Source of the DNA: Bispira polyomma
Lineage: Eukaryota
Length of the DNA stretch: 64,000 bases
Assembly: GCA_965649765.1 (NCBI GenBank)
Contig: OZ287758.1
Location: 34,410,001 to 34,474,000, forward strand
Reading direction: 5' to 3'
Numbering within the stretch: position 1 is the stretch's first letter; every line of letters begins with the position of its first letter. A program made the translations under genes and the position numbers. The notes below the pieces were generated by a model that saw only the letters and a list, made by a program, of their open reading frames with translations, did not search any database and had not been told where the DNA came from. Below, one piece after another: positions 7,006 to 64,000 of the stretch.

Positions 7006-7320
7006 CAAAGAGAAACTCTGTTACTTATAGTGATGATTAGGACACTTAAATTACACAAAGAGAAACTCTGTGTTACTTATAGTGATGATTAGGACACTTA
7101 AATTACATCAAAGAGAAACTTTGTGTTACTTATAGTGATGATTAGGACACTTAAATTACATCAAAGAGAAACTCTGTGTTACTTATAGTGATGATTAGGA
7201 CACTTAAATTACATCAAAGAGAAACTCTGTGTTACTTATAGTGATGATTAGGACACTTAAATTACATCAAAGAGAAACTCTGTGTTACTTATAGTGATGA
7301 TTAGGACTCTTAAATTACAT
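7006..7320. repeat. 53-bp minisatellite, 6 copies
   Basis: CAAAGAGAAACTCTGTGTTACTTATAGTGATGATTAGGACACTTAAATTACAT, nearly perfect tandem copies. Confidence 0.95.
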
Positions 7321-11316: not shown

Positions 11317-11634
11317 AATTACATATATAAAAGAACTTTACAATATTAACTAAAAATAGCGTAAAAAAGTCATACTTCTATATAAATCTAAATACAAATC
11401 CTAATACATGCATTTACTCCTATACATATACAAACATATATATATACAAATATATACATATTAAAAAAGAACTGATCTGATCACAAAATACAATATCCAT
11501 CACTGTAAAAAACCAAAACAACATGTCCAAAACACAAGTCCAAAAAATCATAATCCAACTCCGTAAGCCAGGTCACATCCATCTGTTCTGTCCATGCCGT
11601 ATCCAATCTGACCATCAAAACACCACATCAGTTC

Positions 11635-24300: not shown

Positions 24301-24929
24301 AATGGATCACATCAAGAAAAATCACTAACTAAACACTTCATTTCCCTACTACCAATATCCCCAGCTAAAACATCCCCACCTTTCTTGTCCAAGGCTAAGT
24401 CATCTACAAAATTAAAATCCCCACCTAAAAGTAATTTTCTTTTTGTAACCAAATATTTTGATAAATTTGAAATAAAGAGTTTTCTATCAACATTATTATT
24501 CGGAACATAAACATTAATCAAACGAAATTCCACATTATCAATATTTAAATCCAAAATTAAAAGCCTACCTTCAAAATCAAAATCATAAACATTAATCAAA
24601 CGAAATTCCACATTATCAATATTTAAATCCAAAATTAAAAGCCTACCTTCAAAATCAAAATCAAAACTGACTACATCATAACCTAAGGCTGAACTTAACA
24701 AGATTCCTACACCGCATGAATGTTTTTGTACAACAGACCAGAAAACTTTCCCCTCAAAAGTATTGTCCCAGTATTTAGCCTCCTTAATATTTGTACAATG
24801 CGTCTCTTGAATGAATAAAATGTCCCACCCTTCTAAAGAAAACATATTAAACAAATTCTGCCTCTTACCAATATCCCTAAACCCCCTTACATTTAAACTT
24901 GCTATATTTAACCCCCTATGACTTGACAT
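21363..24929 (-). pseudogene. ORF2 family C (APE, RT, zinc finger), multiple frameshifts
   Basis: Collinear ORF pieces with SLNVRG, GGDFN, KSPGIDGLP, QYADD, ETVDHLFFNC; in-frame 78-bp tandem duplication in the APE. Confidence 0.88.
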
Positions 24930-25279
24930 ATTTTCATAATAAAAATGTGTATATATACATATATATATATAAAAACAGACCTGCTAACAGTATACAATAT
25001 TCCAAAAATATAAAACCAAGTATAATGTCCAAAACCAAGTCCAAAATCATGTCCAAAATCCATCATCCAAGTCCAATCCATCAGTTCTGCCAAGGCCATA
25101 TCCACAAATCAAATCCGAAAGAAAAAACAAAGTCCGACAATCCAAAGAAAAACACAGACCGATAAACAAAGTCCAAGTCCGAAAATCATAGTCCATAAGC
25201 CGTATCCAAGGTCATAATTCAAAAATCAGAGTCCTGACCATAATCCAAAAAAACACAATCCTCAAACAGCTCCAGGTCG

Positions 25280-26413
25280 TCACTTAATAGTCTTTGAAGA
25301 TAGCTTGTCCTTCCGCCTCTTCTTCTTTGCCCTCTGGTCTTTAACCGTGTCATCCGTAGCCGTGCTGTCCTCGTCAATTACCAGATGCGAATCACTATCT
25401 GTCCCACCATCCGACACATCACCCTCATAATCATCTCTGCCTGGATGGGAATCATACAAGTCACTGGCCACGGTGCCGTCTTCAGCCGTATCCCCCTTAA
25501 CTTCCGCTGAAAAATCAGGACTGTTACCCATCTGACTGGCCCCATTGCCTTCTTTCTCAGCCATATTTGTCTGCCTTAAAATACTTTCATCACCTTGGTA
25601 ATTAACATCATCCCCCGGAAAATCACAACTCATAGCTGCCTCAGTCACTACCTTCCTGTTAGGGTCTGTCCTGGATGCAAAGGTATCCTCTTGACTCGGA
25701 CAATCTTTTTTAATGTGGCCAATGCCCTTACAGGCAAAACACACCGGCCCTCTCCCAGGAACCGTAACCAAGACTGAATACGAAGTCCCGCCGTACCAAA
25801 TACTGTCTAGACTAGGTAATATAACACCCTCTTCAGGCTCTAAAATAACACTTCTTACACTTGTCTTGACATGGTGACAACCATCAATGTTAGAGTAATC
25901 CCAGAAAAAACTCTTGACTAATCCAAACATAGAAAAATATGCAATCACATGCGCCCATGGCACAAACGCAGGCAACCAATGCAACTGCACCTTCACCAAT
26001 TCCTTGGATAAAGATATCAGTCTCGCCTTGTGATCCCTAATGATCAAATTGGCACTCAAAAGTGAAGCAGCCGAATCCTCAGACGTGAAAGATGCCAACC
26101 AAACATGATTTGAGTTCACCGGCCCAAAAGCCTCCAAAGTATCCATGTCTACATGTCGCCTCAAGGAATCCAACACATGATTTCTCAAATAGGGGTTTCC
26201 CTCCTTCGGCAATATTATCTTCACTGTGTAATCCCTTGAAGGCGGGTGGCTGTCCATACACACCAACAAATTCCTCAAAGACTGACTTTCCAAAGCCAAT
26301 TTTGCTGTCGCCAAAGTTTTCTCGAAAGAGTCCATATCATATCTGGAATACCTAATTTTGTAATCCACAAAAGAATCATTCATTGCTCTTGTAATAAAAT
26401 CATCATCTGCCAT
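25280..26413 (-). CDS. ORF1 family C: single zinc-knuckle protein
   Basis: LHWLP, PGRGPVCFACKGIGHIKKDC, basic C-terminus; lacks the second knuckle of A and B. Confidence 0.85.
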   Translation of the reverse strand: MADDDFITRAMNDSFVDYKIRYSRYDMDSFEKTLATAKLALESQSLRNLLVCMDSHPPSRDYTVKIILPKEGNPYLRNHVLDSLRRHVDMDTLEAFGPVNSNHVWLASFTSEDSAASLLSANLIIRDHKARLISLSKELVKVQLHWLPAFVPWAHVIAYFSMFGLVKSFFWDYSNIDGCHHVKTSVRSVILEPEEGVILPSLDSIWYGGTSYSVLVTVPGRGPVCFACKGIGHIKKDCPSQEDTFASRTDPNRKVVTEAAMSCDFPGDDVNYQGDESILRQTNMAEKEGNGASQMGNSPDFSAEVKGDTAEDGTVASDLYDSHPGRDDYEGDVSDGGTDSDSHLVIDEDSTATDDTVKDQRAKKKRRKDKLSSKTIK

Positions 26414-26510
26414 TTTGCAACAAAAAGAAAACCTCAACTCGAAAAACAACGAAAGATTCCTTAACTTAGAAATCGCAAATAAACCAGGCCAAGAGACTAC
26501 TTTGTAATCG

Positions 26511-26533
26511 TAGCCAAAAGGCCGAGAAGCGAC
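26511..26533 (-). ncRNA. RNU2: U2 snRNA 5' fragment (nt 1-23)
   Basis: GTCGCTTCTCGGCCTTTTGGCTA downstream of the PSE-like element. Confidence 0.9.
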
Positions 26534-27651
26534 GCCCTCAATTCAGTTCCAAGGACTTTTAGAGTCCAAGTGAACTGCTCAACTATGGTTGGTACTGTCT
26601 GAATAAAACTGTGAAACTGTCGTGGCGTGTCGCGCGGTTTGGGCCTTTCTCATGTGTGTCAGTGGCTGGTGGTCTGTGGCCAAGCTTTAGTGGCACTTTT
26701 AGTGCCACACTAGAAATGCCAGATTATGCCCCACACCAACACTGTGGCAGACTGCAGCACACTGGGCTGGCAGTCATGTGGAGTGTTGTCTGTCCTGCAT
26801 GGACGTTTTTAGGATAAAAATGCACTAAAAACAGTGGGAGAGATCACAGAGGACAAAAATACATTAAAAAACCCATGGTTCATCACTCAACTGACTGTTG
26901 GGGGGCAGAGTTAATTACAGGCGTGGGTGTGAGGCCAGACTGCCCGACATTCGGGTATGTTGAGGCCATGAGGCAGGCAGTCGGGCAGCAAGTATTCAGA
27001 AGCCATTAACCGTACGTGGGGCCAACTGTCAGGCTTTAAAAGGAGGCCCGGCTACTCGGTTGGGTTAGGGCTGTGGATCTCTCAGGATCTCTGAGGATCT
27101 GTGGGATCTGTCTTGAGTGGCTACTGTGCTCACAGGATGGATGTAGTGAGTGACTCAGTCAATGAATTAGTCAATCAATCAATCAAACAATTAACAACAC
27201 TCACTCGTCCCAATTGTGTAGTACACACACTTGTATGCACTGAGAAGTATTCTCCCCCTTTTCTGCTGCTGCTGCCATTCACAATATACATCTTCACACA
27301 GTCAGTAAGTTTTGATTCTATTTTCTAATAATCTATCAAGCAGTCGGTCAACCCAAATAAGAAAATAAATTGCCAATCAGTAACTGAGTACAAAAACCGA
27401 CATTGCCCACCAACAGTGAAATGAAATCAAAACACAGCACACATTTCAAACAAGTTTCTTTTATTTTCCTTTCTAGACATGCAGCCAGTCAGTCACCCAA
27501 TCACCCATGAAATGAAAACACCCAATTATTATTTTTTTTTTTTTTTTGCACTACTAGTTCTTTAAGCCTAATACACGACTAGATGGTCGCACACAGCAGC
27601 GCAAACTGAGTTGTGTTGGTTGTTCATTACTTTTTAAATCCCCAAGCTTGG

Positions 27652-27752
27652 GGGTGGGCCATTCCTGGAGGTACTGCAATACCAGGCCAACCCGTGGAGG
27701 GGTCGGAGCAAGCTCCTGCATCCCCTTCTAGTTCTAAAAATCAGTTTAATAT
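27652..27752 (-). pseudogene. RNU2: U2 snRNA 3' fragment (about nt 90-190)
   Basis: Sm site and stem-loops III/IV present; 5' half replaced by unrelated A-rich sequence. Confidence 0.92.
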
Positions 27753-28929
27753 TGATTAATATTTTTTTTACCTAATAATTGTACACTCCAACTTTTGAGG
27801 CACACTATTTTATCACCAGAGGGCTCAATGTGGGTCTAAAGGTTAAGCAAAGAACACTAAAAAGAGAATGAACAAACCAAAAGAACAGGCTTTTTAATAT
27901 GGTTTTACATAAACAAGGTACTATAAAGATGGTTTTTATTGATATATGATGCTAGATTTTGTTTCTTGTTTGTATTCTTCTTCTGTTGAGCTGATTCTAT
28001 TTTCTATTCTCCATTTCCTATTTTTCTTCTCCTTGTGTACTGTAGGTTTGGGATAGGCTTGCATATGTCGATTGATGTTTGGGCTGCCAGTCGATCCATG
28101 GTTAGGATTGATTGAGAGATTCCCTGCCACTGTGGTCTTGCTATGCTGAGAGAGCTAGAGGCCCTTAAAAGGCTTAGACATTTTCTTAATAAAAGAAAAA
28201 ACACTAGTTTGTTTGTTTGTTTTGTTTTATAGTCAAGACTTGTTTTGATTTCTATTTATCTATTATTGTTGTTTAAAATAAAGTAAATTGGCTAGTAGAA
28301 TTTTTTATTTTTAAAATAATTTAAGGTGATTTCTGTTTGGGACTGGCTTTTGCCATGTTATAGACGCATGGTGTCAAAGCCTGTCCAACCTTGAGAGGAA
28401 AATAATTTTTTTAGAAGATCTTAGCTATTTATAAACAATATATCACATATATTTGATATGTTTGTTCACTCACTAAACGTTTTACTTAAATCTTAAACAA
28501 GCTTGGTTATATAGTATTTGGTATTACATCAGTAGCTCAGCAAAAAGGTAGATTCAACGTCTCTTAAACCTTATAGTACTTGACCTTACATCCGTAACCC
28601 AGCAAGATGTAAGACCAAAATCTGTTAGGCCTGATGGGTGTAGAAATTAGCTTGCTTGTGTGGTACCTGGCCTTACATCAGTAACCTAGCATGAAGTTAA
28701 AGAGAGAGATATTTCTATGGGAAAGGGGGTGGTTTACTCGTTGCGTTACTTTTAGATTTCTTTACTTTATACTCAGTCTGTTAGGCTATTGCCGCAGAGT
28801 AGAGTATTTTACTTAATTGCTGTTACTGGGTTGTGCATTTTAATAGAGGTTTCATGATTGAACCAGTTGGTATTTTTTCTTTTTTTTAAATTCTATATTA
28901 AGGATAACACATTTTTAGCTGTTGTTCTA

Positions 28930-29957: not shown

Positions 29958-30452
29958 AGCCACCCCGGGGCTAGTAAGGTCAGTGCTGTACCTTAAAAAC
30001 AATACTTACCTTAGTCAGATCACAGTGACCCCTCCTCTGATTGGCTGGCAGCTGGCCCACATATTAATTATTTCCCGTTAAAAGCATATAACCACCATTA
30101 AAATTTAAGAAACTGAAAGGGCAACACGCCATTTTAACTTATAAAATTTTTTGAATTTGTTATTGGATATTTTATACTTTACATCTTATTTACAAGTTTT
30201 AATTATTATTGTTGTGTGTGTGTACTGCCGAGAGGAGTCTCCGTCATACTGTGAAGGGAAAAGCTGGATTTCACTTCCATTATAGTCAATATTGGGCTTT
30301 GACATATGCGAATGCCGCTTCACTTTTGGAGCTACGGTTAAAGGGCTGTTCTCACTTCTATTCTGGTGTTAATTACATAAATTTACTAGTCAAATTCAAC
30401 AGCTCGGGATACGCATATATCAAAGCACAATTCTCCTTGTATATGATTTCAG

Positions 30453-31485
30453 ATGGCTCCGAGAAAAAAACTATTTATGTAACTCTTGCAATACCAAACA
30501 TGTAAAACCTATCAATGAAAATTGTCCCTATATTGAGGACGAGGAGACAGTTAGTGACAATGCTAGTGAAAGTAGTGACATTTCGGCAAAGGAAATAAAT
30601 TTACGGATTTTACAAGAACTTCAGCCATTGAATGGCCGTATGACGGCAGTGGAGAGTAAAGTGAACATTTCTGATCAATCTGCCTCGTTGGCAGCGTCTA
30701 GTGCTAACGTTAGCCTGTCTGGGGCGACTGCAAGACTATCAACTACCTCAGCGACAAGTCCTGGGCTACAGCAGCTGCCCAGTGGGATGGAAGATCTGTT
30801 GGTGCCATCCCTGACTACATTGAAGACGTCTGAGCATCTCCAAAGAGCTGTAGACTGCAGGTTGAAAGAACTGGCTCATTTAAACGACGCAGGTAACCAA
30901 AAGTCTCAGAGGGGTGGGTCAGAAACTGTTTGGGTAAAGAAAAATGTGCCCTGGCCACAAAACCACATTCTGGGGGGTCAAAATAAAAGCCGCTCATCGT
31001 ACGATAGTTTATCTATGGCCCAATGGGTCTCAGGGTTCTGTGCGATTATTAGGGATGAAAAAGATAATAATACCAAAGATTCAATGTTAGAATATGTGTA
31101 AGACCTCATGGAGGACGCGCACGATTTCTCCTGGAGTGCTGCAAAAGGCAGTCATGCAGTTCTGCTGTGCAGAATGGAGGAAGGGAAGGTAACTTGGCAG
31201 GACACTGCTAAAATTGATCGAATAAGAAGAGCTTATGCTCAGAAAATAGTTAGCAATGGCCACTCGGGTGCTTCCTCCACAAGATTTTCCACTAGCAAAT
31301 CTAGCGAAAAAGGGCTGCCTTGCAGATATTTCCAAAGGGGTGCTTGTACTAACAAAACAGATCATGAGACTAAAGGTCAATTGTACTTACATATATGCTC
31401 AGTTTGTCATACCAGTGGGAAATCATACCCCCACAGTGCTAGAGACTGTCACAAAAACAAGGCTAGTAATGCAAAAAATGAATGA
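30453..31485 (+). pseudogene. gag-like ORF of the YR retrotransposon
   Basis: N-terminal CNSCNTKHVKP...C motif, WPQ...YDSLSMAQWVSGF, C-terminal CRYFQRGAC...HICSVC...H...C. Confidence 0.7.
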
Positions 31486-32269
31486 GGCACTGCAAACAAG
31501 CAGTGCCTGAACCCCATGTTGATCAAGATTCTCGGGTTAAAGTAAACAAACCAAAATGTAAAAAGTTAACAAGAGAAAGGTGGTTTACAGAAAGAATTGT
31601 ATATAATTCCAAATGTGTGTCTAACTATATGTCTGGACAAGGGGGCTACCATAACTGGAGAGCAGATTTGGCAAAATATCAAAATAAAACTTATGCAGAA
31701 GTAGTACAAAAAAATCAAAATGTGGACATTGAAAACAAAAAAGTAAATAGGCTTGTTGCAAGTGTCAAAAGCACAGGCTCAGCTTATAGCCCCCTCGTCC
31801 AAAAAGAAATACTTTGTACAAATGTATATCATAACAATGACTCTGAAAGAAACGTGTAAAACCCAGAACAAACCAATTAGGCTTGTTCGACAAGGTGACA
31901 CCAAACTCGAGAGAACAAAGGCAAACTGCCACCTCCTGGGTAACAATAGGGTTACACAAAAGCGAAAGGGAACAATACCAGTGGTTGTGCGTGGTCAAGA
32001 AAGGGACATTCAATGTAACAATAGGTTTAACCCCCTTTTGGCCCTTACCGAAGTCGATCAAGTAGAACGACTAACTGACAACAGTGTTAATGACACTAGT
32101 AAAGCCCAAAAGTGTGTCAACAATACACGTGAGTTAAACTCAAATGTCAACGTGCCGGTGGAGGACAAATACCAATTAGAACTCCAAGTTAAAAAGAGGC
32201 ATAGGCAAACAGTTGAGTTAGCTAAAGACAACAAAACATTCCAAGCATGGAATGACCAGAATAAGGAAA

Positions 32270-33967
32270 AGTTTGGTTTTATACCTCTAGGAGATTTGTG
32301 TATACCTAGTACCATAAGCCATAACGTACCCATTGAGGCTCCACTGGCATTATATGAAAAAGTAAAAAGTCACAAAGTTCCAAATTATTTGGGTGCACAA
32401 ATTCCCGTACAATCTGAATTGAATGTAGCGAACTGGGAAAAGCTATTGCGAGACTACTGGGACAAACTTTGGTTTTCCATTAAATTTCGACAGAAAGAAT
32501 AACTTGCACCATACCGGGGATAACCATACATCGGCCACTCAATACGAGAGTGACGTAAAGGCATACTTAAAAGAGCAAAAAGACTTTGGTGCCATTATAG
32601 GCCCCTTTAAAAAACCTCCCATTGAAAAATTACATATATCACCCTTCATGACTAGGCCAAAGCCAGATGGGGATCTTAGAAGGGTAATTATCGACTTAAG
32701 TTTCCCTCACGGCCTAGCAGTGAACTCTTGCAATTGCAAGCAGTGAACACTTGCAATTGCAAGAGACACCTATTTGGGAACTCCCTTTCTGTTAACATTG
32801 CCAACTATTGATGATATTACCAAAAACATTGTTAAATTAGGAAAAGGAGCCTTATTATATAAGCTAGACATAAGTCGGGCATTCCGTCATGTGAAAATAG
32901 ACCCGGCAGACTATGAGCTATTAGGTTTAAAATTGGATGATATATATATCGATACATGCTTACCATTCGGCTATCGTCATGGAAGCGCGATTTTTCAGCG
33001 CCTAAGTGACGCCATACGCCATGACGTCACGTGGTTATGACGTCATCAACTATATTGATGACGTCATAGGTTTTGGCCAACAAGAAATAATACAAGAAGC
33101 CTTTAATACGTTAAAAACTTTATTTCAAGAGTTAGGTTTCACATTAAGCAAAAAGAAAATTGTAGACCCAAATACTAAGGTCATTTGCCTAGGTGTCCTT
33201 ATTGACACAGACACATTCACGGTCTCCATACCCGATGCAAAATTAAAATACAGGATATATGTAGTGCATGGAATAGAAACAAAACGTGTACAAAACGACA
33301 ATTGCAATCTTTGTTAGGCTCGTTACTATACATTTCCAAATGTGTAAAATCCTCTAGGGCATTTCTCAACAGAGTGTTAGACACATTGCGTTCAGCCGAC
33401 AATACAGCATGTATCAAATTGAATACTGTATTTTTTCAAGACCTAAATTGGTTTCAAAAGTTCTTACCTACGTTTAATGGAGTAGCTTTCTTTAACCATG
33501 CACCAATCACAGAGCAGGTCGAATTAGATGCATGTTTACAAGGGTTAGGCGCTAGATATGGGAACCAAGTATACACAAAACAAATTCCATTAGGATTTAG
33601 GGATTATACAATTGTACATTTAGAAATGATCAATATCTTAGTAGTCATACGAGTATGGAAACACCAATGGACGGGAAAAAAGTTGCTAGTCCATTGTGAC
33701 AATCAAGCGGTAGTGCATGTTTTGAATTCAGGCAAAACATATGATCTCACACTAGCAGCAATGGCAAGGAACATATTTATGGAAACAGCGCAATCAGACA
33801 TCGAGTTACGAACTGTCCATATATTAGAGAAAAATAGCTGTACAGCTGATTTGCTGTCCAGATGGCATTTGACAACCGATAATGTAGAAAAACTAAACAC
33901 ACTAATACCACGTCCAGAATGGCTATTAGTAAAAGATGATACTTTAGAATTGGACTGGTCAATATAA
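32270..33967 (+). pseudogene. RT and RNase H of the YR retrotransposon (frameshifted)
   Basis: RRVIIDLSFP, KLDISRAFRH, LPFG, NYIDD, LDACLQGLG, HLEM, HCDNQA, ADLLSR. Confidence 0.88.
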
Positions 33968-33980
33968 AATGTAATTTCAG

Positions 33981-34950
33981 GTCTGGATGGGTGGGTTGCA
34001 AAGGTAGCAGCCCAGGCAGCTCTTAGAACACAGCAAGCGTTTCGGCCTTCAACCAAAAAGTCCTACACAGTAATGTTTAGGGTCTTTCTTGCTTTTTGTT
34101 GCTTTGCAAATTTGGCTATGACGGCCATAACCACCCCGATACTCTTAGCCTTTTTGGAATGTTTAGTAGCAAACAACACAACCCACACTTCCATAGCAAA
34201 TTACCTTTCAGCAATAAAAGCAAATATGTCATTATATGGACTAGATATCTCAGCATTCAATGATCAGAGAGTCAAATACTTTCAAAAAGCTCTAGTGCTG
34301 CAAAAACCCTTCAGGGCTAAGATAAATGCAATAATTGACATTGATTTACTTGCGAAAATTAGCTTAGTCTGTGACTCCATGTATATGGGCCAAGTTTACA
34401 AGGCAGCATATCTGCTGGCCTTCTTATTTTTATATCAAACTTAGTTCCCCGTTCAGCTTCAGCATTTTCACCACTGCATCAGTTAGCCAGGGCTGACATA
34501 TTATTCGCCCCTCCTGGTGCTCATATCATAATTAAATGGACGAAAACACTACAGACAAGGGACAATGTAAAAGTTATTAAGATTCCAGTCCTCTCAAATT
34601 CACAGGTCTGCCCGGTGCAGGCCCTCCAAGTGCTTTTAGCAATCACACCTGGTTCCAAAAATAAACCTCTCTTTCAAATAAAGATAAATTCCAACTGGTG
34701 TCCGTTAACAGACACTAGAATTCGTAGAAATCTCAAAGCAATATTAGGTAGACTAGGATTGGAAGGTTCAAGTATCACATTCCATTCATTTAGACGATCC
34801 GGGGCCACCTTGGCCTTTAATTCACATGTGCCCATACAAGCAATCCAGAGCCAAGGCATCTGGTCATCAGACTGCATATGGCGATATATAACGCAAAATC
34901 ACGAAGCCTCGGACCAGGTTGCTCTTGCTTTCCAAGCACGTTTCTCTCCT
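33981..34950 (+). pseudogene. Tyrosine recombinase of the YR retrotransposon
   Basis: AFRPST...Y, SIANYLSAIK, KWTKT, CPV, HSFRRSGAT, IQSQGIWSSDCIWRY. Confidence 0.88.
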
Positions 34951-35437
34951 TCTACTACCCCCTATTTGGGCCTTGGTGCTCTTTCACTAGAATATATTTA
35001 CAGCATATTTTATACATCTATTCAAATTCTAAGGCCACCTTAAAATCAAATAACTTAATTTATGGTAACCTTAACTTCTGGTAAACTTAAATCAACTGAA
35101 TCTCAAAATCTAAGGTTACCTTATCTTCACTTTACTAAAAAACTGTTTTGTTTAAGGTTAACTTAATGTCAGTTTTCGTAAACTTAACTTAATTTATGGT
35201 AAACTTAAACTCTAAAGGTGGCCTTAAATTTTTAAAATTTTACAATCATTAATGTTTTATACAATCTGTACATAGCTTAGATTAGAAATTAAAATTCATA
35301 TCCCAACTGCTGGCTTTTCATTGCATAAAATCTTAGTAAACCTAATGTAAACCTAATACATAAATATCTTAAATCAACAATCAATTGGGTACGAGGCACT
35401 GAGTGAATTGTCACATATTTTTGTGTTCGTACAGCCA

Positions 35438-41379: not shown

Positions 41380-44300
41380 CAAGAGAAACTTATAACTTAT
41401 AAATGTAACATTGCATGTCATTTTTACAGTACTGTAGCTTCATCAATATTGTCATGATACCCCGTGACACAGAGGACACTATGGTTTCCCTTGTCCAAGT
41501 CCCACCACGTATCATTACTGAAGGATTCATTATGATTTTGGACGTGTAAATATCCCTGACACATACCTGTATTACTCGCATTATATACACGTGTGCATAT
41601 ACCGAGTGCCTTTTCCTGTCTTCATATACGCGTTCACTATAATTAAAATACACTACGTGATTATTATAATATTTAGTGAGACAGAGGACATTATGGTGTT
41701 CTTCGTCCAACCCCCCATTGATAACCTGGTTCATTGAAGTTTCGTACGTGTGAGCCATTATGATTTAGTGGTGACTTTCATTATTATAAAATCTTTTGGA
41801 GCACATTATGATTTACTCTGACGTGTTCTGACCAAATACTGTTTGCTAATAATGCATTGGCATTATCAAGACAACCGACTTCAGAAGTAACCATTTGTTC
41901 ATCTGACATATTATAAGTACAAAAACACTCATCAAGGCTATCATATGAACATACGATACCTGACTTGTGGTTCCAGTATTGGTAACGATTAAGCGTTATA
42001 AACCGTATGCTTAAAATCCACTTCATTGTTTTTTAAAAGCGTGACAGCTGTGTTTTGTTTTGTCTTTATATACAATACTACTTTTGGGGGTAGCCACATG
42101 CTTTGGGATTCTATTAGTGTAACACTCGTGCCACATTTTAAGTCCCCCTTCAACAGAATGGGCAGCTGAACAGATACCATTGTTAGTAGAAGCGTTTATC
42201 AAATGATGATCCTAATATAGGCATATTTTGGACTTTGAATCTTTAGAACTCAACCAGTTTCCAACATATTTTTAATGTTAGTGGCTCCACTAATGGGTAT
42301 GGCATTTATTTATCATTCCACCAAATATTATGCCCATGATATGTATAGAAATATTTCATATATAATTTTTTCCTTCTGTCATTGGACTAAACCCAGAGAT
42401 CAAACTATGATCCTATTTGTGGCCAAGTAACAGTATATACACTGCTTGCATTTTTATACATTATGCCAAATATGGGCATTTTGTTTTACACTTGCAGAAG
42501 CAGGAGTCCTGGTTTTGGACAAACAATATTGGCAATTCAGTATTATAGAGAATATTATATGTTCATCAAGATGAGGTAATAAAGGCAAAAATGGACAAAA
42601 GTATGTGTATTCTAAAGAATTCTACTACATGTTATATTTAAACATAGCAAATTGCATTTAATGGCCGATTCATTTTGTCATTGTATATGTAAATGTCAGA
42701 GCCCAAATTACAATTTGGCCAATCTTAAGATGGACTACAGCCCAACTTAGGATCATATGTTTTACAGCCTATCTAATCTATCCTATAAAAGTGTACAAAG
42801 AAAAGCATAAACTAAAAGTGATGATAACTCATATAAAACAATTACCTTTTTTGATTAAGTACAATCAGGAACTGGTCAACACTTAATCTAGAAAGGCTCA
42901 TCACTTATTTGAAATAGTTTATTTTTCATCCATGGTTTTAAATGAGTATCTCTGCTTATATCTTATTTCTTAAGCTATTCAATAATCCCTGTACCGGGTA
43001 AACTTTGCCCCATTGATAACTGGTGATGTTTTTCAGCTGTCCAGTTTTCCTATATGATCTCTGTGGTCTAAAGAAGGTACTTTAGAAGTAACCAACTTGA
43101 ATTATAGGACACTGCAGATTTTAATTTATATAAACAGCACGAAGTCATAACTAAAATAAGCAATAATAATTCCATTTCTTTATTGGACTTCCCCCAATGC
43201 AGTACAAAAGCAATGTAAATTCAATTTACACCTACATGTATGTGTACATGGATTAAAAACTGTTTTAATCACACAATTCAAATTTGGCTGCCTATTATTA
43301 CTATCAGGAAGGAAGAAAATGGTTACTGACACTAAATCCAGTTAAACGAGTTAATCACACATCTAGTCTTCACAAACAAATTAATTAATCCATGGCTTCC
43401 CATTACTTGGTATCAAATTAATCTATGCAAAAGGCATATTGAAAGGAAAGGTGTATTGTGATCTTACAACAATTTAGGGCAATATTGAAAAAAATTACAC
43501 TCCAACAAAAGATGCATTATAAATGTAAGTTTATCAGTAAAACAAGTAATAACTGGAACATTCAATAATAAGCTTCAAACCTGTGATTACATTCAAACAA
43601 TTAACAATAATTCATCATCATGTGAATTAATTATTATACAATTCAAACATTTAAAATGTCTAGTTTTCAATTTTAATCCAATCTCAAGTTTAGCTAGTTT
43701 TCCCTACCAATCTAAGATGGGATAGCTCATCTTAAGATAGGCTGCCAAACTTATAAGTTGGGCTATAGCCCGTCTTAAGATTGGCCAATTGTAAGTTTGG
43801 CTCTGACTTTTACATAATACTCTGACAAAAATGAATAGTAGAATTCTTTAGAATACACATGTTTTGTCCATTTTTGCCTTTCTTTCCTCATCTAGATGTA
43901 CATATAATATTTCTTTTAATACTGAATTTACAATATTGTTTCTGCAAACCAGTACTCTTGTTTACACAAGTGTTAAACAAAATGTCCATATTTGGCATAG
44001 TGCAAAAAATGCAAGCAGTGTACCAATAAAGAGTTCACACTGTCACTTGGCCACAAATAGGATCACAGTTCGATCGCTGGGTTCAAGCCAATGACAGAAG
44101 GAAAATATTAAAAATAAATATTTCTATAATTATTTTGGGCATAATATTTGGTGGAATGATAAATAAATGCCATACCTATTAGTTAAGCCACTAACATTAA
44201 AAATATGTTGGAAACTGGTTGCGTTCTAAGTCCAAAATATGCCTAAATTAGGATCATCATTTGATAAACGCTTCTATTAGGCTACGTGGAGAACTGGCTG

Positions 44301-54700: not shown

Positions 54701-57477
54701 GGGTTATTAGTGACAGAGCGGTCAAGCAAAACTTCATAAATCTGACACGGCAATTCGCTTTATATTATAAAATGGGAAATATACGGAAATATGTTCAAAT
54801 ACTGATAATTATGTAAACAAATCCTTATAGGTTGGGCATAAGATATAATATTGTGTACTGCTATTGGATTAATCAACATACAACCACAGACTCTCACTGT
54901 GTCTCACTGTGTACTGTCAGTTAGTCAGAGCTTCGGCGAGGACAGAAAACTGAGTGTCATATTTATAAGGCTGTTAAAACCCAAACAAAACGCAACACAA
55001 ACAATTGGTAATAAGTGTACTTACTGTACTCAGATATATAAAGTTAATGTTTAGTTTAACATCACTTTCAATGGGTCTATTTGTATCACAACAGGTATTT
55101 GCCAAGTTGAATTCTTAAACAATTTTATATTCAGGCTTCAGCAAATCTAGTACTAACGTTCCCATATAAACCCCAAGGATGAGATTTGAATTCACAACTG
55201 CATATGTGGCAAGGGGAGGACGATTTTAAATAAGCAATATTTATAAGATCGAAGTAATTATGAAACAAATTTCTTCTAAATCTAATTGCTTCTAGGATGA
55301 GCCACTATAAAAACAATTATTCAACTCTGTATATTTTATACCACATGAGAATGTCAAACACCAAAACATAAATAATTCACATATATACAAGGAATCAGTG
55401 AGCTGGTGCTCACGTATCGGTGCTTTTAAAGTTATGGACAGTCTTGAGACGGTCTTGGGATGAAGTGACCACTGAAAAGAAGATGAGTTTTATTGCCCAA
55501 CTTAATTAAACAAAACATCATATATTTTCCCTCACAGCTTTTACTTCATTAAATATATATTACCCTAATTAAACAGTACTTTTACAAACTCCATTTTATT
55601 TCGTATTTTGACAACTTTATTACAGTCCACCATGGCTCATTTTGTTGACAGCAGAATGAGTAGAATCTTTATTTTTTTTAATTTTGACAAAAGTTTAATG
55701 GAAATGTCACCCAACAACAAAGTAAATATTTTTACAAAGAATAAATACTTTTGCATCTTCTGTCAAAATGTGAGCCAATTTTTTAGATTAATAACTGCGA
55801 AATAAGTATTTTATATCATTTGGTAGGTCACAGAAGTTGCTTTGTTTACCTACAACTCCATCTTGGTTGTTGAAGGTCAATGTCATTTTGTATGAAGGGA
55901 TTTCATCAGTTACGGTATTAGCGATTGTGATTGGCTGATCATACAAGTGATGCTTTATAATAATAAATATTGCGTAGTCAGGGAAGCACATGGAGATAAA
56001 GTAGCTGGGATATATGGAAAGCAAATTGAAGGGATTAATATATTTAAGTCATATAATTATAAGAAAACCTGTGTAAGCAGGCCTAATATACCTAAGGTAA
56101 ACATTACTTACATTTTATTTAAGGAAATCGCATCGAATTGTGAAGCCACGATCTTCATTTTTTTATAAAACAGTATTTCCGGCGATCAACAGAGCATCAT
56201 TTGTTACACATGAATTTCTTGGATTCAAACTGTTTGACAAAATAGGACAATCAAAGTTGTAAGTTGTTAAAAAAAAAAGTATTTTTAGACTCCTGTAAAA
56301 AGTCAAATGGAAAGTAAGCCCATATACTGGAAATTTAAACCTGTCTATAGTCATTTGTAATGTTAAATTTAATAATACATATATATATGTTACAGTAAAT
56401 ATGTAAAATCAGTAAATACGCGTATTTACTGAAAATTTCAGTAAATACGCGTACATTATAATTTGAAAGTAAATGATGGCTCTAGTATTGAAAAATTCCG
56501 AATTGAAAAAAGGTAGATTTAGAGATGAAAAAAGATTGTTTTCTGCGCAGAATTACAGTTGAAAAGTTAGATATTTTAAGTTGGTTTATTATAGATTTGG
56601 AGTTGAATTCCTATACAAAACAAGTGAAATATTTTCACTTGTTATAATCAAATTTTAATTTTTTAAGCATTTTGTTCATTAAGGATAACCACAAACTATA
56701 CTGTATTAGCACAGTTTTTGTATTTTTGCAGCATGTATATATCTGAAATGTACAACTCTATACAGTTATGTTAGTACTAGTAATACCTCAGGAGCACCTG
56801 TTAAAATTTAAGTCTTACAAGTTTAGGCTATTATGACAATATACAACATTACATACTACTTCATTTTATGTAAAACTATTCCTTGATATATATCACACTG
56901 ACATATATTAAAAACAATAAAAGTAAAAACAGATTTCTCAAGATATTACACATAAATTTAAAATTATAAATGCTTATCTTCAACAAAGATGTCTGCCAGG
57001 AAGTGTAACCGAGCTCACTAAGCATGTTCCAGTCAGATATTCAACCAAAAATCAACACTATTTCTAATCTAAAGGTGGCTACTTTTTCAAGTCAAGATAT
57101 TGACTTGAACTTAGTGTTGAAAATCCATTTATCAACATCAGAACCAATTTTTAACACTCAATCTACATCGTTTTCAAGTCATGTGCCTGCTGGGATGGGT
57201 TTTAGGAAAAAAATCCTTGTTGAATATACTAATGGTATCGAGTAATACAGTTTTGATCATTTTTTTGATATTCTAAAAATAGTTGAATGTATTTAGTGGC
57301 AATTTAAAATTTATTTTACTTTTTACCCAATCAGTTACCGTTTTCAAGAAAGACTGGATTGTTTCATAACTTCACAGTTATAAAATAGATGCATAATAGA
57401 TTCCTCAAAAGTATTACACAGTCTACATCTATCACAGTTTTCTAATGACATTCTTGGTCTTATAATACTATAAAACA

Positions 57478-58140
57478 TCTATCGCTCCTGCTATCACAAC
57501 ATACGCGACATCAAAAGAATAAGAAACCACCTGTCCATGGACACAGCGATAGCCGCCTCGACTACTGCAACTCTCTCTTGTACGAAGCAAACAAGTCACA
57601 CATTAAAAAGCTCCAGTCCATTCAAAACTACCTATGTAGGGTCATTTTTCGCCTGGGCTGTCGCACAGACATCACTCCTTACCTCAAAAAATTACACTGG
57701 CTGCTCATTAACTCTCGCATTTTGTTCAAGATTCACGTTACTACTTTTAAGGCTGTTGTCACTCAACAGCCCCCCTACCTTGCCTCCCTTCTTTCCTTCA
57801 GTAACCGCAAGAGAGGCAACAGACTCTCCGTCACTTCGGTCAGACTAATCAGAAAGGCGGGATTCAGAGCGTTCTCCACTGCAGCTCCACAATTATGGAA
57901 CAGTCTCCCAGTTGACCTCAGATCAGTTGACACACTTGTCGCTTTTAGGAAAAAGTTTAAAACCTATCTTTTTAATCTTGCCTACCCACCTTAGCTTCCC
58001 TCGTGCACGGTCCCACTTCCTTCCTTAGGACTTTGCAATGTCCATGGACTTAATGATTGGACCAATGATTCTGCTGGTGCACTTTAGATGATGCCTAGCA
58101 TCAATAAAGCGCGTTAAAAATTTATAATAATAATAATAAT
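57478..58140 (+). mobile_element. 5'-truncated L2/CR1-group LINE
   Basis: KLQSIQN...ITPYLKKLHWL...RAFSTAAPQLWNSLP...FKTYLF; (ATA)n tail. Confidence 0.85.
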
Positions 58141-58800: not shown

Positions 58801-59447
58801 TGTAGTATTAAAGTGAACACTCACCTTATTGAGCTTGGTTGATGGCCAAAACGCCAACCACGCAACAAGACACCACTTTACTTGTTATAAGTTGTAATAT
58901 GGTCGATTTACCACTTTAAACTTCACTTATCTGAGATATGTGTTCTCTGTTCAAATATGGCGGTCGATCTGACCTTGGTTACATCTGGGACCTCCGCGCA
59001 TAGTTTCAGTGGCCAACCACACGCTAGCATCGTGTTTTCGCGACCGCCGCTCACCACATTCCCCTCTGTCATGTTTTTGGGGCTGGCTCCTATGGGAAAC
59101 AGAACTTGGCACAAATGTAATAACGTTTCTCAGGGTGTTACTGTTCCTCTGTTCAAAACTAATTCAATTTACGTCACTACTATTTCATATTTCCCATTTT
59201 TGGAAAGGGTGCATTTTATTTCTCTATGGTTTACATAATTAACGGTTCACTGTTCATTTATACAACATTTCAATGTTTCTTTTTCACCGTATTTCACTAT
59301 TGTTACCTTTCACATTTCGTTGTTCATTTTAATCATTTAACTAAATTGTTTATTTTAACTTTACTTTTTAATTGTTTATTTTAATTATTTAATGGAGATT
59401 ACTTTTTAATTGTTCATTTTAATTATTTACTTTTAACTTTACTTACA
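58801..59447 (-). mobile_element. Putative 3' LTR of the Gypsy element
   Basis: Minus strand begins TGTAAGTA right after the G-rich tract GGGTGGTGAGGGT (PPT-like, 59448-59460) and ends TACTACA; partner LTR is outside the window. Confidence 0.55.
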
Positions 59448-59525
59448 ACCCTCACCACCCATGTCGAACTTAACCGACACCAACTTACCCATATCGAATC
59501 CGATCGATACCCTATTCCTCCCCCA

Positions 59526-62500
59526 TCAGTTTGTTAGACCATAAAACTGATTGGCATTCTGCAAGTCAACTGTCACAACCTCTTCCACTGCCAACCCCTT
59601 TAGATCCGCGATCCTTTGGGCTATGCTCAGAATGCCATAAGGGGAATTGTAGTTACACCCCTGATGTTCATGAACCTTCAGGTGGGGAGAGTCAGTTTCC
59701 AACAAGATCTTCTCCAAAGGCAGTCCCTTTATTACTTCCTCTATCTCGGGATGACGTTCTGTTCTCATTATCAACCCGGTAAAGCCAAATTTAACATTCG
59801 GGAAAGTATCCTGCTATTTTTCTGTCTCTCTGACTCCCCCGTTGTAGCAATGCCTGTGTATCTTGTACCTTTCCTTTTCACAGGCAGGCAACTCGCTACG
59901 CATAACCTTCAAACACAGTTCAGTCGCATATGTGTCCTGGTTATAATCCCGGCAATGTATGACCAGGACTTTGGAGAAAAGTTGCTTTTTTACATAAAAT
60001 CCTAAAAGATCTTTGAGGACTGCCACTTGATGTTGCATCAGTGCTGAGTGACCTGAGGTGCGCTCAATCCCCATCTCTCCAATAGCAACGCATCGGGGTT
60101 GACTTTCCACCAAAAACTTCAATTCGTCTAGATGAACTTTGGTGGCTTTATGGGCTTCCTTTGGATGAACCCCGAATGCAAACCAAAGACGGCTGTTCGT
60201 CTTGGCCTCACGCAACTCCCTGTAGCTTGGCATGTCATCGCAAAAGTTTGCGACTGCAGCCTCTAGATGGGCACATAGATGAGGCTGAGGACCATTTCCA
60301 AGTATAGAATCCAGATGAAATTTCTTGCTTACCCTCCTGGTTCTATCTAAATGAAAATGGGAATCCGTGAAGGTCAGTTTTTGGTGCATTTTAAAATAAT
60401 TCTGCCTCCCTCTCCTGAATTCCCACTCTCTTTCCCCATATGGCGTGCCAACCTCCTCAAGCCCTTTTTGCCTCGTTGCTCTCGCGCTGATTGCCTTGGC
60501 CCGTACCAGCGCCTCTCTATAGGTTTTCTCCTCCTCTTTTTTCCTTTCTTGCTCAAATTCTGGCCCAATAGACAGATTTTGAATTACAGCTGAGGTTGAT
60601 GGTTTTCCCAGAGCCGCATCCATGTCGGCAATCAACTCACTTGTCGGCTCTGGTGATTTCATTTCAACATCTTAACTCTGTTCTGCCTCTGGGCTTAACT
60701 CCCCTTCTTCAATTTATTCCAATAATGGTCCAGACTCCCCTGCCTCAGTTTGAGCCGCTAATGGGCTTGTTGATACTTCCTCAGGGAGCGCATCATTTTG
60801 GGAGGTCTCAGCGCCTGGTTCCACTTTGGAAACTCTTCTCCTGGAGGGGGTATCAAATGATTCCTCCTCAACGTCCACCTGTAATGGAGGAAATTCTTCA
60901 TTAAATGCCGCCGTTCCAGCTTCTGGTATTACTGTGGAACCCTCAACATCTATTTTGAGAATAGGCATAGCTCTCTGAAAATGTTCCTCACCTACAATGT
61001 TTATCAGACAAGCCGCTACTCTCCAATGAATCAGGGATTCTACAACATTTGGTGGGTCAATGCTCAGGGTTCTGCAAAGGGATTGTCCCGTCCTCCAGAC
61101 GTGGAACTCATTCATCAATTCAAAATTCTCCTCACAGTTTTCGATAGTCATACCCCTGGTGTTCGGGTAGATATGATCCCTGATAACCCGCTGTAGAAGT
61201 TCTTCAGGGCTACTGACTCCTAATTCATGTGCAGCGCTCAACAAAAATTCCTCAGTAAAGATTATCCTGGTTTCCAGGTTTTCGTTCCAGAATCCAGTTG
61301 GCAGATGACTCGCTATAACGTGGCGCCTCATATAGCTTTGCGGGAGCCCACAGGTTTTGATTGGGCAAGCCGGTCGTTGTTTAGCTTTCTTTTTTGGCCT
61401 GACAATATTCTGCGACCTCTGACTTGGATACACAGGTGCGGCAGATCTACGGGCTTCAGCTTGAACTGCATCTCTTTGAGATTTTGACCCGTTACCTTGA
61501 GAGGACTTTTCTAATTTCTTACTGGCTTCAGGTTTATCTGAATCCTCATGCTTCTCTTGACGATCCTCTTTTTTGTTGGCTTTTTTAGATCCTTTTTGGT
61601 CAGCTTTTTTAGGTCCTTTTTTATGGGCGTCAGATTGATCTGACTCCCCTGAATAATGCCTTTTTTTTGCTACTCTTTTTGGCATCCTTCCTAGACCGTT
61701 TGACATAGGTCTCGGAGTCATCTGAATATCCGTGATGCTTTTTCTTTTTCGACCTCACCTCTCGCCACTCATATTCTCCAACGGTTTTACGCTGCTTTAT
61801 AGGCTTCGGACTAGTTTGCCTGGCAGCTCATTCTAGCCTGCTGCTCTTAATGGCTGCCCTCATCTCAGCCTCTTCCTCATTCACGCCATACACCCTTTTA
61901 GGTTTAACTGAGTGAGCTACAGATGTTTCCGGTGTAGTGCTACTTGTTTGAGCTGGTCCCGAAGTAGCAACTGACGCCTGTGCTGAACTGGCAACTGCAG
62001 GGGTAACACTTGAGGCTTGGCCACTCATCAGTAACCGGATGTCCCTCAGACATCATTCTAACAACAGAGCTTGGTCAAATGGCTCGCGTCAGTTACTGGG
62101 ATGAAAAACTCTTCCCCTTGCTATTTCAGGCCTCAAAATTTGAAATATGCCTATTAGTCCCCTGGACCCACCAGACTGGGAATCTGAGATATCGCATTGA
62201 GATTGCAACACTTCAGATTCCCGTCCGCTTTCCTTTGACCTACCAGCCTGAGAATCTGAGACATTGTCTTGCCCCTGCAACCTCTCAGATTCTCGTCCAC
62301 TTACACTGGGTCTACTTACCCGGGAATCTGGAGCATTGCCTGTACCATGCAACCCTCCAGAATTCCGTCTGTTACCTCCATGACCAGATCTCATATGTGG
62401 TGGTTGATAGTGGTTCCCACCACGGGGATGCCATCTTCCACCAATTGGTCTTGGCCAGGGTTGATCCTCAGCAGCCTGAGTCCCTCCCCGCCTTTTACCA

Positions 62501-62685
62501 TCATCGTCAACGCGACTCTGGGGTGGTACGAGATTTGGTCTCTCGGGTCCCTCATCACCATAGCGACGTGGACCCCGGAAAGACTGAGGTCCTCGATAGG
62601 GGCGACCGCCATGAAAACGACGCTGTCCCCCTCCTCTCCAGCCTCTCCGTCTACCCCTCTCATAGGGGTTACTACCATACGGCAT
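59526..62685 (-). pseudogene. Extra ORF in the env position: RG-rich N-terminus, C2H2-like finger, TatD DNase domain
   Basis: 61721-59526 is one frame broken by three stops; DSHFH, GVHP, GEMG, IHCR, RHCY, ETDSP TatD motifs; CPIKTC...HVIASH finger. Confidence 0.82.
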
Positions 62686-62801
62686 CTGAAAAACCACAAC
62701 ACAAAACATTTAACACCTCGTAAGAAAGTCAATATTATCTCATCATTACCACCACCTTAACAAAACCATGCAACCTAAAATTACTTAAGTAGAGTAATCA
62801 T

Positions 62802-64000
62802 TTAAATGCTTTGGTCTTCTCCTTTCACGCCCCGACCTCGTGGTTGGCATGACATCATCGGGTGAAGGGGTGTCTCTCTGAAAACATCATGCTGGGTAAC
62901 AAGATTTGGAACTAAAGGAACAACATTTTGACTTTCTAGATTGTTATCTTGATTAAAAGGAATAATATCTTGACTCTCTAAATTATCATTATCTTGACTA
63001 AAAGGAATAACATTTTGACTAAAAGGGGAAATATCTAAGTTAGTATCAGATTGACTAAATAACTTATCTAAGTCAAGGGAATCCATGTCAGTCAACCTCT
63101 CTTCAGTCAGGGTAGCGTCTTGATCTTCCGTTTGACTCAACAGTAGGTTCCTTTTCCGCCTCAGCCACAGAGGTACCTCCCTGTCCACACACAACTTCAA
63201 TCTGTCATGACGCACAACAGAACTTTTTTTCCTGTCACATATTCTAAGTAAGATAGGAGAAATTACTTGAGTTACTAAGAACGGACCCTTCCATACTTGT
63301 TGTAATTTAGGACTTTGACCTACTTTCTTTGCCGAATCCAACCTGTAGACTAAATCCCTGACTTTTGTAACATTGAACTTTTCGCCTCATATCATAATCA
63401 TTCTTCTGGCATATTTGAAAAGATAACAGATTCTCCCGAGCGATTTGATGGACTTGTCTGAGGATATTCTTCATCCTGATTACATACTCTGATGAAGTGA
63501 GACTAGATTCTTCTATACCTCCCATCATTACATCTAGTGGTAGAATAACTTCTCTCCCCAACATCATTAGATTTGGTGTGAAACCGGTGTTTCTGTTCAT
63601 TGTAGAACGGATAGCTCCAGCTAACTGTTGCAGATGTTCGTCCCAATGCTGTTGGTTACCCTTGAGGAAACATCTGGTTAGTTGAAGTAATGTTCGATTG
63701 TACCGCTCCACCTGCCCGTTGGAACATGGCCGATATGGTGTCGTTCTTGTTTTGGCTATTTGTAGCAACTCGCAGACAGAAGCAAATAGTCGACCATCAA
63801 AGTTTTTACCTTGGTTTGTATGTATTTCAACAGGGCATCCAAAACGGAAAATGAAACCATCCACGAGACATCTGGCCACTTGCTTTGCATTTTGAAGTGG
63901 TAGTGGAAAACACTCCAGCCATTTAGTGAACTGGTCCACAATCATAAGCACATATTGGTTCCCTTTGGCACTCGGTGTGAATGGCCTTAATATATCTACA
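62802..64000 (-). mobile_element. Ty3/Gypsy pol integrase and C-terminal domain (frameshifted, continues beyond the window)
   Basis: DILGP, VDQFTKW, HTNQGKNF, PCSNGQVER, TGFTP, WKGPF (GPY/F) motifs. Confidence 0.93.

Follow-up and report, generated by a model that had tools for sequence, protein, structure and literature searches.

The nuclease gene and its Gypsy element

The DNA analyzed here (the window) is a stretch of 64,000 nucleotides (nt) from contig OZ287758.1 of Bispira polyomma, and it contains the 3′ part of a Gypsy (Metaviridae) long terminal repeat (LTR) retrotransposon. Between the integrase and the 3′ LTR, in the position of an env gene, lies a third open reading frame (ORF3), which encodes a TatD nuclease domain behind an unnamed finger-containing domain. 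All element coordinates are positions in the window, and every element feature is on the minus strand. In the sense direction of the element, the features are as follows; a slash marks a splice junction.

62785..64000, minus strand: 3′ end of Gypsy pol, continuing past the window edge, with integrase core, C-terminal GPF-type domain, acidic tail and basic C-terminal motif
62686..62784, minus strand: spacer from the pol stop to the ATG, 99 nt, T/G-rich; its 3′ end is TTTTTCAG, a putative splice acceptor adjoining the ATG
59526..62685, minus strand: ORF3, a nuclease fusion apparently derived from TATDN2; a pseudogene in the window copy, with six stops and one frameshift
62090..62685, minus strand: Arg/Gly-rich low-complexity N-terminus, predicted to be disordered and to bind nucleic acid
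62030..62160, minus strand: short conserved block shared with the nearest relatives, containing two stops
61380..61830, minus strand: Lys-rich basic linker, containing the frameshift and a possible nuclear localization signal
60984..61382, minus strand: unnamed domain of 130 residues: a putative zinc site (CxxxxC-x9-H-x4-H), then a helical bundle in which a P-x-N...H-W motif is conserved
60378..60983, minus strand: acidic, poorly conserved linker, containing two stops
59526..60377, minus strand: TatD domain of HxH type (group II), identified by Pfam PF01026, ligand alignment and tree; one stop at 59816
59069..59525, minus strand: 3′ untranslated stretch, 457 nt, A-rich (GC 0.315), with short repeats
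59059..59068, minus strand: polypurine tract (PPT), read from the sequence, adjoining the LTR start
58801..59058, minus strand: putative 3′ LTR, beginning TGTGGT, with a TATA-like site at 58889 and candidate 3′ ends at 58801, 58758 or 58662
58819..58827, minus strand: consensus splice donor AAG/GTGAGT, within the LTR under all three candidate ends and ~65 nt after the TATA-like site

The window itself holds only the integrase, after which pol ends, consistent with the Ty3/Gypsy order in which integrase comes last. The integrase core matches Pfam rve at 63999-63310 (E 3.7e-12), and the match to Integrase_p58_C (E 1.7e-4) is under the cut-off of that family. Nine full-length Gypsy pol proteins (P0173-P0181) share 71-77% identity with the window integrase, and the nearest named integrases come from Mytilus, Saccostrea and Haliotis (52-59% identity). 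These molluscan matches suggest a marine invertebrate host, and the U2 small nuclear RNA genes of the window point to an animal. These nine nearest relatives contain RNase H followed by integrase, with a reverse transcriptase motif additionally found in five; a motif scan detected all four RNase H motifs in eight of the nine. The basic motif at the C-terminus of pol is common to the window copy and the aligned nearest pol proteins. In a FastTree phylogeny, the window integrase falls within a 10-row clade (support 0.991) whose clusters comprise 113, 98, 75, 27 and 18 sequences. The window copy of the element is dead: tblastn pieces and three-frame translation place two frameshifts in pol, near 63365 and near 62870, ahead of the stop codon at 62787-62785, and the motif scan shows one integrase catalytic motif degraded near 63820.

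The PPT and the TG start of the LTR at 59058 are clear, and there are three candidate CA ends for a TG...CA LTR. The end at 58662 forms a perfect 6-nt inverted repeat with the start, the sole 6/6 match among 43 CA ends (three others give 5/6), and an AATAAA lies at 58682. This end is also inside a tandem duplication with a 47-nt period (37/43 nt) that reaches into the flank. No second LTR copy was found within the window; the 5′ LTR and the target-site duplication would fall outside it. What identifies the LTR is therefore its composition together with the PPT and the TG at its start.

Domain organization of ORF3

ORF3 runs from the ATG at 62685 to the stop codon at 59528-59526, which gives 3,160 nt, or 1,053 codons plus 1 nt. 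A preliminary description of this DNA had reported a Gypsy element with an apparently intronless ORF of about 1050 codons in the env slot, broken by a few stops and one frameshift. The boundaries agree with this, as the pol stop lies 99 nt before the ATG and the PPT 457 nt after the ORF stop, and the few stops are six (62091, 62055, 61830, 60716, 60674 and 59816), with one net frameshift near 61670. By tblastn, ORF3 is colinear with residues 1-960 of an unbroken relative, P0003; the match comes in two pieces, which overlap where the frame shifts. The start codon is therefore conserved, and there is no room for an intron in the window copy.

The first 100 residues of ORF3 contain 20 Arg, compared with 23-26 in P0003 and two other unbroken relatives, P0005 and P0007. 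The N-terminal third matches P0005 by BLASTP (E 3e-19), and the short block at 62030..62160 is visible by eye in the alignment of P0003, P0007 and P0012. We note that the N-terminal part also contains an internal repeat with a 72-nt period (62165-62354, 70% identity) that preserves the frame. The CxxxxC...H....H motif lies at 61367-61305. The acidic linker has 14-25% identity to five relatives, and its length varies from 12 to 272 residues across the family.

The TatD domain is complete, with Pfam model positions 1-163 and 170-253 flanking the last stop, which in the window copy falls inside the domain. Its HxH, E, H, H, E and D align to H7 and H9 of YcfH and to E91, H127, H152, E201 and D203 of E. 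coli TatD, with codons at about 60359, 60353, 60077, 59957, 59852, 59699 and 59693, as in group II TatD enzymes. The RG-rich N-terminus, basic region, finger motif and full set of metal ligands listed in the preliminary description were thus all recovered. The finger was correctly spotted, and it turns out to be the start of a folded domain of 130 residues.

ORF3 as a non-envelope protein with putative splice signals

The highest 19-residue hydropathy in the ORF3 protein is 1.43, and its N-terminus is hydrophilic; three intact relatives are alike (maximum 1.19-1.43, hydrophilic N-termini). In this hydropathy scan, no signal peptide or membrane segment was evident, as had been noted before. No envelope family of Pfam was matched by ORF3 or its scanned relatives, and the signal peptide, fusion domain and C-terminal anchor of an Errantivirus-type env are missing from them. 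These sequence features indicate that the ORF3 protein is not an envelope.

The env RNA of errantiviruses is spliced. The acceptor TTTCAG/ATG, already described directly before the ATG at 62685, occurs twice when both strands of the window are counted (128,001 nt), one occurrence being at the ORF3 start. The donor pattern MAG/GTRAGT occurs three times in the same 128,001 nt, once in the LTR on the sense strand; both patterns were picked for counting after the sites had been seen. Since the two LTRs of an element are copies, the 5′ LTR would hold the same donor and could splice to 62686. We infer from these signals that ORF3 may be expressed, like env, from a spliced subgenomic RNA that joins the 5′ LTR donor to the acceptor at the ATG. 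The pairing of this putative LTR donor with the acceptor is a new observation of the present analysis.

A folded domain ahead of the nuclease

An AlphaFold2 model of the middle domain (61382-60984), built from a 62-row alignment, has a predicted local distance difference test score of 93.9 and a predicted template-modelling score of 0.87, and consists of a short finger followed by seven helices. The C, C, H and H of the finger are kept in 104, 105, 106 and 106 of 106 rows, respectively. The domain has no Pfam family match, and Foldseek searches of PDB and BFVD gave nothing at E ≤0.001. Among 48,161 chains compared with VIA-align, the best has Z 3.4, a root-mean-square deviation of 3.7 and 77 aligned residues, and none reaches Z 5, although such absence is not proof of a new fold. 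A calponin-homology-type resemblance was suggested by the titles of weak top rows, and we did not take it as evidence. In the ESM Atlas, which we used for leads only, the middle domain resembles unnamed clusters at 0.89-0.91 (one of them eukaryotic, commonest in Cnidaria, with 4 records), and generic TatD clusters fall below 0.8. The motif and the basic stretch before it suggest that the domain may bind zinc and nucleic acid.

One unnamed protein of 2,942 residues (P0169) contains five finger/helical domains alternating with ankyrin repeats and has no TatD domain. It is perhaps a host protein that adopted the finger/helical domain, or else the source of the domain.

A multi-copy family of unnamed proteins

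When the C-terminal 336 residues of ORF3 were used as the query, 21 matches were obtained among 4,645 candidates, and the ten best are unnamed ENA proteins with 38-53% identity. The unbroken relatives P0003 (960 residues), P0005 (1,017 residues) and P0007 (821 residues) represent clusters of 42, 115 and 33 sequences; cluster sizes among these matches are 115, 42, 33, 13 and 9, versus 1-7 for named fish TATDN2 proteins. P0003, P0006, P0009 and P0012 are 79-96% identical and lie on contigs of four distinct lengths, and P0005, P0004 and P0011 are 90-95% identical and lie on contigs of three. The shorter copies in both groups are truncated or internally deleted, each differently. Judging from these sequences, the ORF3 family looks like a multi-copy element whose copies are decaying. 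Identity between the window copy and P0003 is 55% in the finger domain, 53% in TatD and 25% in each linker.

Of 1.84 billion cluster representatives searched with a profile of nine relatives, 1,247 matched at E ≤1e-30. The best 150 comprise 128 with both the middle domain and TatD, 21 with TatD only (many of them fragments) and one with the middle domain only. The family thus contains at least 128 clusters at 50% identity with both domains, and because the profile favoured such proteins, the number sets a minimum for the family and should not be read as their frequency among TatDs. Of 138 family rows, 8 are truncated and were set aside; the other 130 have a near-complete domain, and among them 123 retain the full set of six ligands (HxH, E, H, H, D) and all 130 the further glutamate. 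N-termini and lengths are very different across this wide family. Three of the 118 scanned proteins are fused to NADAR (P0073, P0124 and P0086; N-terminal in two, C-terminal in one), which joins two nucleic-acid damage enzymes in one protein, and NADAR is absent from the near clade of the window ORF3. P0014, P0015, P0017 and related compact members have a second Cys-rich insert in the middle domain, and their linker to TatD is only 12-35 residues long.

The nuclease belongs with animal TATDN2

The preliminary description had proposed a phylogeny that included bacterial TatD. In a 57-row IQ-TREE phylogeny, the family and TATDN2 are set apart from 17 prokaryotic TatDs at 100/100; a single clade (98/99) unites 32 of the 33 family rows sampled, with P0132 outside, and the window TatD groups with P0003 (99/90) inside an 8-row clade (100/98). 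A 170-row FastTree phylogeny supports the main split at 0.964 and the family node poorly, at 0.455; these trees hold neither TATDN1 nor TATDN3, and two of their seven 'TATDN2' rows (P0131 and P0168) are unnamed proteins that we labelled ourselves. A profile of the family TatD domain scores named TATDN2 proteins at 180-197 bits and prokaryotic TatDs at 35-128 bits, with YcfH below TATDN2. Against a two-domain family profile, solved TATDN3 (E 4e-19) and TATDN1 (E 1e-12) are both far below YcfH. Together, these comparisons indicate that the ORF3 nuclease derives from the TATDN2 branch of animals. A prokaryotic or phage origin is ruled out by the trees, the profile scores and a phage tblastn search, in which none of 19 records spanned 80% and the best 10 of the 19 reached 24-26% identity over TatD.

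ORF3 does not look like a conserved host orthologue within the TATDN2 clade, which would have a short branch and no extra folded domain. Named TATDN2 proteins are only 28-31% identical to the window TatD, the finger domain is absent from each of the eight TATDN2-type rows, named or database-only, and the branches of the family are long relative to host TATDN2.

These relationships bear on the likely activity. TATDN2 degrades RNA in R-loops and hairpins as a 3′ RNA exonuclease and hairpin endonuclease, and the human enzyme has little DNase, very weak apurinic/apyrimidinic (AP) endonuclease and minimal activity on plain RNA:DNA duplexes (PMC10711561). Its E593, E705 and D707 have been equated with E91, E201 and D203 of the E. 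coli enzyme; the Glu residues equal to E91 and E201 are required for activity, and the disordered N-terminus is required for R-loop binding (PMC10711561). Both Glu equivalents are present in the window ORF3. TATDN2 is also active in, and protective of, primordial germ cells (PMC12709183). TATDN1, TATDN3 and the E. coli enzymes, including group II YcfH, are 3′ DNA exonucleases and AP endonucleases (PMC10085689). The preliminary description had taken these latter enzymes as its guide to activity, which must be replaced, the nearest characterized relative being the RNase TATDN2; the label 'DNase' for ORF3 may therefore be wrong.

Linkage of ORF3 to Gypsy pol

On the basis of this layout, ORF3 very probably belongs to the Gypsy element in the window. 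The 10-row integrase clade parallels the 8-row TatD clade in family number, source and cluster sizes, and the nine close pol proteins, like the ten best TatD matches, are all unnamed and all from ENA. This parallel is suggestive only. We consider it probable that an ORF3-type gene is linked to Gypsy pol throughout the near clade; for the wide family, the balance tips slightly towards such linkage, and its members may also travel with different Gypsy lineages or with elements of another kind. Gypsy pols further away within the group, such as P0227, P0235, P0228 and P0254, end in PF07496 or PF00628, which we take to be the chromatin readers zf-CW and PHD, and the nine nearest list neither.

Other features of the window

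About 700 nt past the LTR, on the plus strand at 57449-57994, lies what appears to be the C-terminal part of an ORF2 from a long interspersed nuclear element, presumably of L2/CR1 type; it has no Pfam match. Three diverged Tx1/L1-type non-LTR elements (ORF1, endonuclease and reverse transcriptase) are spaced 6.5-6.9 kb apart on the minus strand at 9000-28000, with four U2 small nuclear RNA matches among them (13097-13204, 14220-14408, 20711-20893 and 27649-27779). This region looks like U2-targeting elements in a U2 array, presumably of the type named Keno. Gag-like ORFs, an RNase H-like region and tyrosine-recombinase pieces at 30373-35043 on the plus strand, with weak Pfam matches, are presumably a DIRS/Ngaro-like retroelement. 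Nested inverted repeats of ~2.1 kb at 42184-44279 (83-95% complementarity) are probably an element of foldback or miniature inverted-repeat type. Tandem repeats with units of 142-143 nt and 53 nt occur at 5889-6538 and 7009-7320, respectively.

Possible functions of ORF3

Our leading reading, which we hold tentatively, is that ORF3 is a spliced accessory nuclease that removes RNA from the three-stranded RNA:DNA structures of its element, as TATDN2 does from R-loops. A Gypsy lineage of marine invertebrates would then carry its own accessory nuclease gene, the window copy being a dead member. Long ago, a retroelement would have captured the catalytic domain of animal TATDN2 and fused it to the zinc-finger/helical domain, and the fusion would then have radiated into well over a hundred divergent families. 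ORF3 would be translated from a subgenomic RNA in which the 5′ LTR donor is spliced to the acceptor at the ATG. Binding of three-stranded or structured nucleic acid would be the task of the finger domain and of the N-terminus, which is Arg-rich and disordered, and trimming of RNA from the 3′ end would fall to the TatD site with its two metals. The most probable substrates would be R-loops at transcribed copies in germ cells, and also displaced-strand intermediates of reverse transcription that the intact RNase H of the element would handle poorly. Removal of such structures would keep copies transcribed and synthesis of complementary DNA (cDNA) moving. As the RNase H motifs are kept in eight of the nine nearest pols, ORF3 would add to RNase H, and the idea that it replaces a degenerate RNase H is ruled out.

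Several points weigh against this reading. The long branches of the family mean that the substrate may have drifted from that of TATDN2, and the TatD active site does not discriminate RNA from DNA. TATDN2 itself is minimally active on the plain RNA:DNA duplex, the main intermediate of reverse transcription (PMC10711561), and the NADAR fusions, although 3 of 118 scanned proteins, point to reversal of DNA damage. The account of enzymatic ORF3s in bdelloid rotifers (PMC5408684) shows neither activity nor advantage for them. The make-up of the trees given above counts here as well, as does the intronless state of the relatives, which we deduced from long unnamed ORFs. Pol and ORF3 were seen side by side at one locus only, with the 5′ LTR outside the window and the LTR end unsure. 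A pol-TatD fusion was not found among 927 long candidates, in which the one match is a host TATDN2; none of 120 pol proteins has a finger or TatD domain, none of the 118 scanned family proteins has a reverse transcriptase, RNase H or integrase family, and BLASTP and profile cross-searches were blank. A GTDB scan gave at least 15 generic prokaryotic TatDs (22-30% identity) among the matches listed, and no contig was evidently common, by eye, to the ten best TatD matches and the 120 pol rows. A separate ORF would give no fusions, so the blank fusion searches neither support nor refute linkage.

The nuclease may instead serve counter-silencing, by trimming PIWI-interacting RNAs (piRNAs), small interfering RNAs or their precursors, or by removing sensed cytoplasmic cDNA or hybrids; we regard this as rather unlikely, though it is the strongest of the alternatives. 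The 3′ RNA exonuclease and hairpin endonuclease activities of TATDN2 (PMC10711561) would suit this role, and DEDD nuclease folds are tied to piRNA factors, as noted for the bdelloid ORF3 (PMC5408684). The branches of the family are long compared with host TATDN2, as in arms races, but long branches are usual for any retroelement gene. The Arg/Gly-rich N-terminus of the ORF3 protein also fits. N-termini of this kind enter RNA granules. The 3′ ends of mature piRNAs, however, are protected, which counts against trimming.

It is also unlikely, and slightly more so, that ORF3 serves cDNA repair or end-processing, polishing cDNA ends or processing abasic or modified bases as a 3′-5′ DNA exonuclease and AP endonuclease. 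TATDN1, TATDN3 and YcfH have such activities (PMC10085689), and the HxH site of ORF3 is of the same group. The three NADAR fusions among the 118 scanned proteins would agree with this, as NADAR reverses guanine ADP-ribosylation (PMC11125620), but they lie outside the near clade. Moreover, TATDN2, the nearest characterized relative, has little DNase and very weak AP activity (PMC10711561), and an AP endonuclease would tend to break cDNA.

We think it improbable that ORF3 is a passenger that originated in a virus or a different kind of mobile element, by which the gene family spreads, and that it came to lie after pol and before the LTR just in this copy or sub-lineage. Such an origin would agree with linkage at one locus, with the GC content of ORF3 (0.475), which exceeds that of pol (0.403), and with the divergent N-termini and lengths of the wide family, which may ride other elements; bdelloid ORF3s have been exchanged between unrelated retroelements (PMC5408684). 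However, there is neither space nor a terminal repeat for a nested element, since the 99 nt upstream are the acceptor tract and only 457 nt separate ORF3 from the PPT. The matching donor within the LTR, the likeness of the TatD and integrase near clades in size, source and cluster sizes, and the low identity of the phage records (24-26% over the TatD domain in the best 10 of 19) also speak against a passenger.

A one-off processed retrocopy of a host TATDN gene, the possibility that the preliminary description had raised against its own reading, would account for a TatD domain from the TATDN2 clade without introns, but we find it very hard to credit, as ORF3 sits deep in a clade of divergent families with unbroken multi-copy relatives, its finger and nuclease domains are conserved (53-55%) over linkers at 25%, and named TATDN2 proteins share neither close identity with it nor its finger domain.

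Relation to known systems

The preliminary description knew of no characterized system of this kind. This holds in part: what appears new is the family of the enzyme, together with the domain fused to it, but enzymatic ORF3s, including a 3′-5′ exonuclease, are known. In the Juno and Vesta LTR elements of bdelloid rotifers, the ORF3 that follows pol encodes an enzyme and not an envelope, namely a DEDDy 3′-5′ exonuclease with intact catalytic residues; this ORF3 is described as a unit of its own that is spliced, and its function is unproven (PMC5408684). Their enzyme has an RNase D-like DEDDy fold, whereas the window ORF3 has a TIM-barrel TatD of the TATDN2 clade, which forms the end of a 1,000-residue protein that also has an unnamed finger domain and an arm rich in Arg, and which belongs to a family of at least 128 clusters. 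No DEDDy family of Pfam was matched in ORF3 or its scanned relatives, where the domain is TatD PF01026, and the main text of PMC5408684 does not mention TatD.

Animal TATDN2 resembles ORF3 in having a C-terminal HxH-type TatD behind a long low-complexity N-terminus, with the same catalytic Glu, Glu and Asp. It differs in its identity of ~30% and its lack of the finger/helical domain, and the ORF3 family is multi-copy and fast evolving and stands here in a retrotransposon. Plant Gypsy elements offer cases in which a host nucleic-acid enzyme became fixed in a lineage, namely the second RNase H of Tat elements (PMC4408406) and an AlkB demethylase ORF in orchids (PMC9289625). The extra RNase H of Tat is likewise an RNA:DNA nuclease on top of an existing one (PMC4408406). 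These captures are in plants and concern other enzymes, and the extra RNase H of Tat is a dual domain, compared with a separate post-pol ORF here. Errantiviruses, the env-carrying Ty3/gypsy elements, also have a third ORF between integrase and 3′ LTR (PMC13524379), and the putative splice signals of the window ORF3 would fit a subgenomic RNA like that of env; unlike the errantiviral ORF, the window ORF3 is without signal peptide, membrane segment or envelope family, and there is no sign of infectivity. TatD does not appear in the text and seven supplementary files of that survey of env elements (PMC13524379). QatD, of the bacterial QatABCD anti-phage system, is another HxH-type TatD nuclease in genetic conflict (PMC13434339). 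It is bacterial and acts on the host side, and judging by the prokaryotic rows of the trees, which do not include QatD itself, it would lie outside the TATDN2 clade.

Accessory domains listed in a review include the chromodomain, DnaQ-like exonuclease and viral helicase (PMC6338049). Among the papers listed from PMC (Creative Commons licence) and bioRxiv, we found no TatD-carrying retrotransposon, in a search that did not cover Repbase, Dfam, GyDB or subscription journals. An enzyme in the env slot is thus already known as a kind, and it appears that this enzyme family, the fused domain and the breadth of the family are unreported. A figure of the giant squid Hox cluster labels a 'putative deoxyribonuclease TATDN2' among transposon-like ORFs, which might be a family member (PMC6962438).

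Significance

LTR retrotransposons rarely fix a captured host enzyme, and such a case indicates what limits the life cycle of the element. TATDN2 has only recently been tied to R-loop removal and germ-cell survival. Because the captured enzyme is a relative of TATDN2, it becomes testable whether R-loops or structured RNA are a germ-line bottleneck or a silencing trigger for retrotransposons, and unbroken natural relatives exist for assay. A bolder view, which we consider unlikely, is that the whole family of at least 128 clusters at 50% identity is the cargo of an old, widespread and unrecognized invertebrate Gypsy radiation, in which the encoded protein erases R-loops or small RNAs, binds nucleic acid through a new fold and lets retrotransposons evade germ-line silencing. 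If true, this would be an animal element-encoded anti-silencing nuclease, and it would account for some stray 'TATDN2-like' labels on invertebrate genomes. In annotation work, 'TATDN2-like' genes that lack introns and occur in many copies in an invertebrate assembly may mark transposons and not expansions of a host gene.

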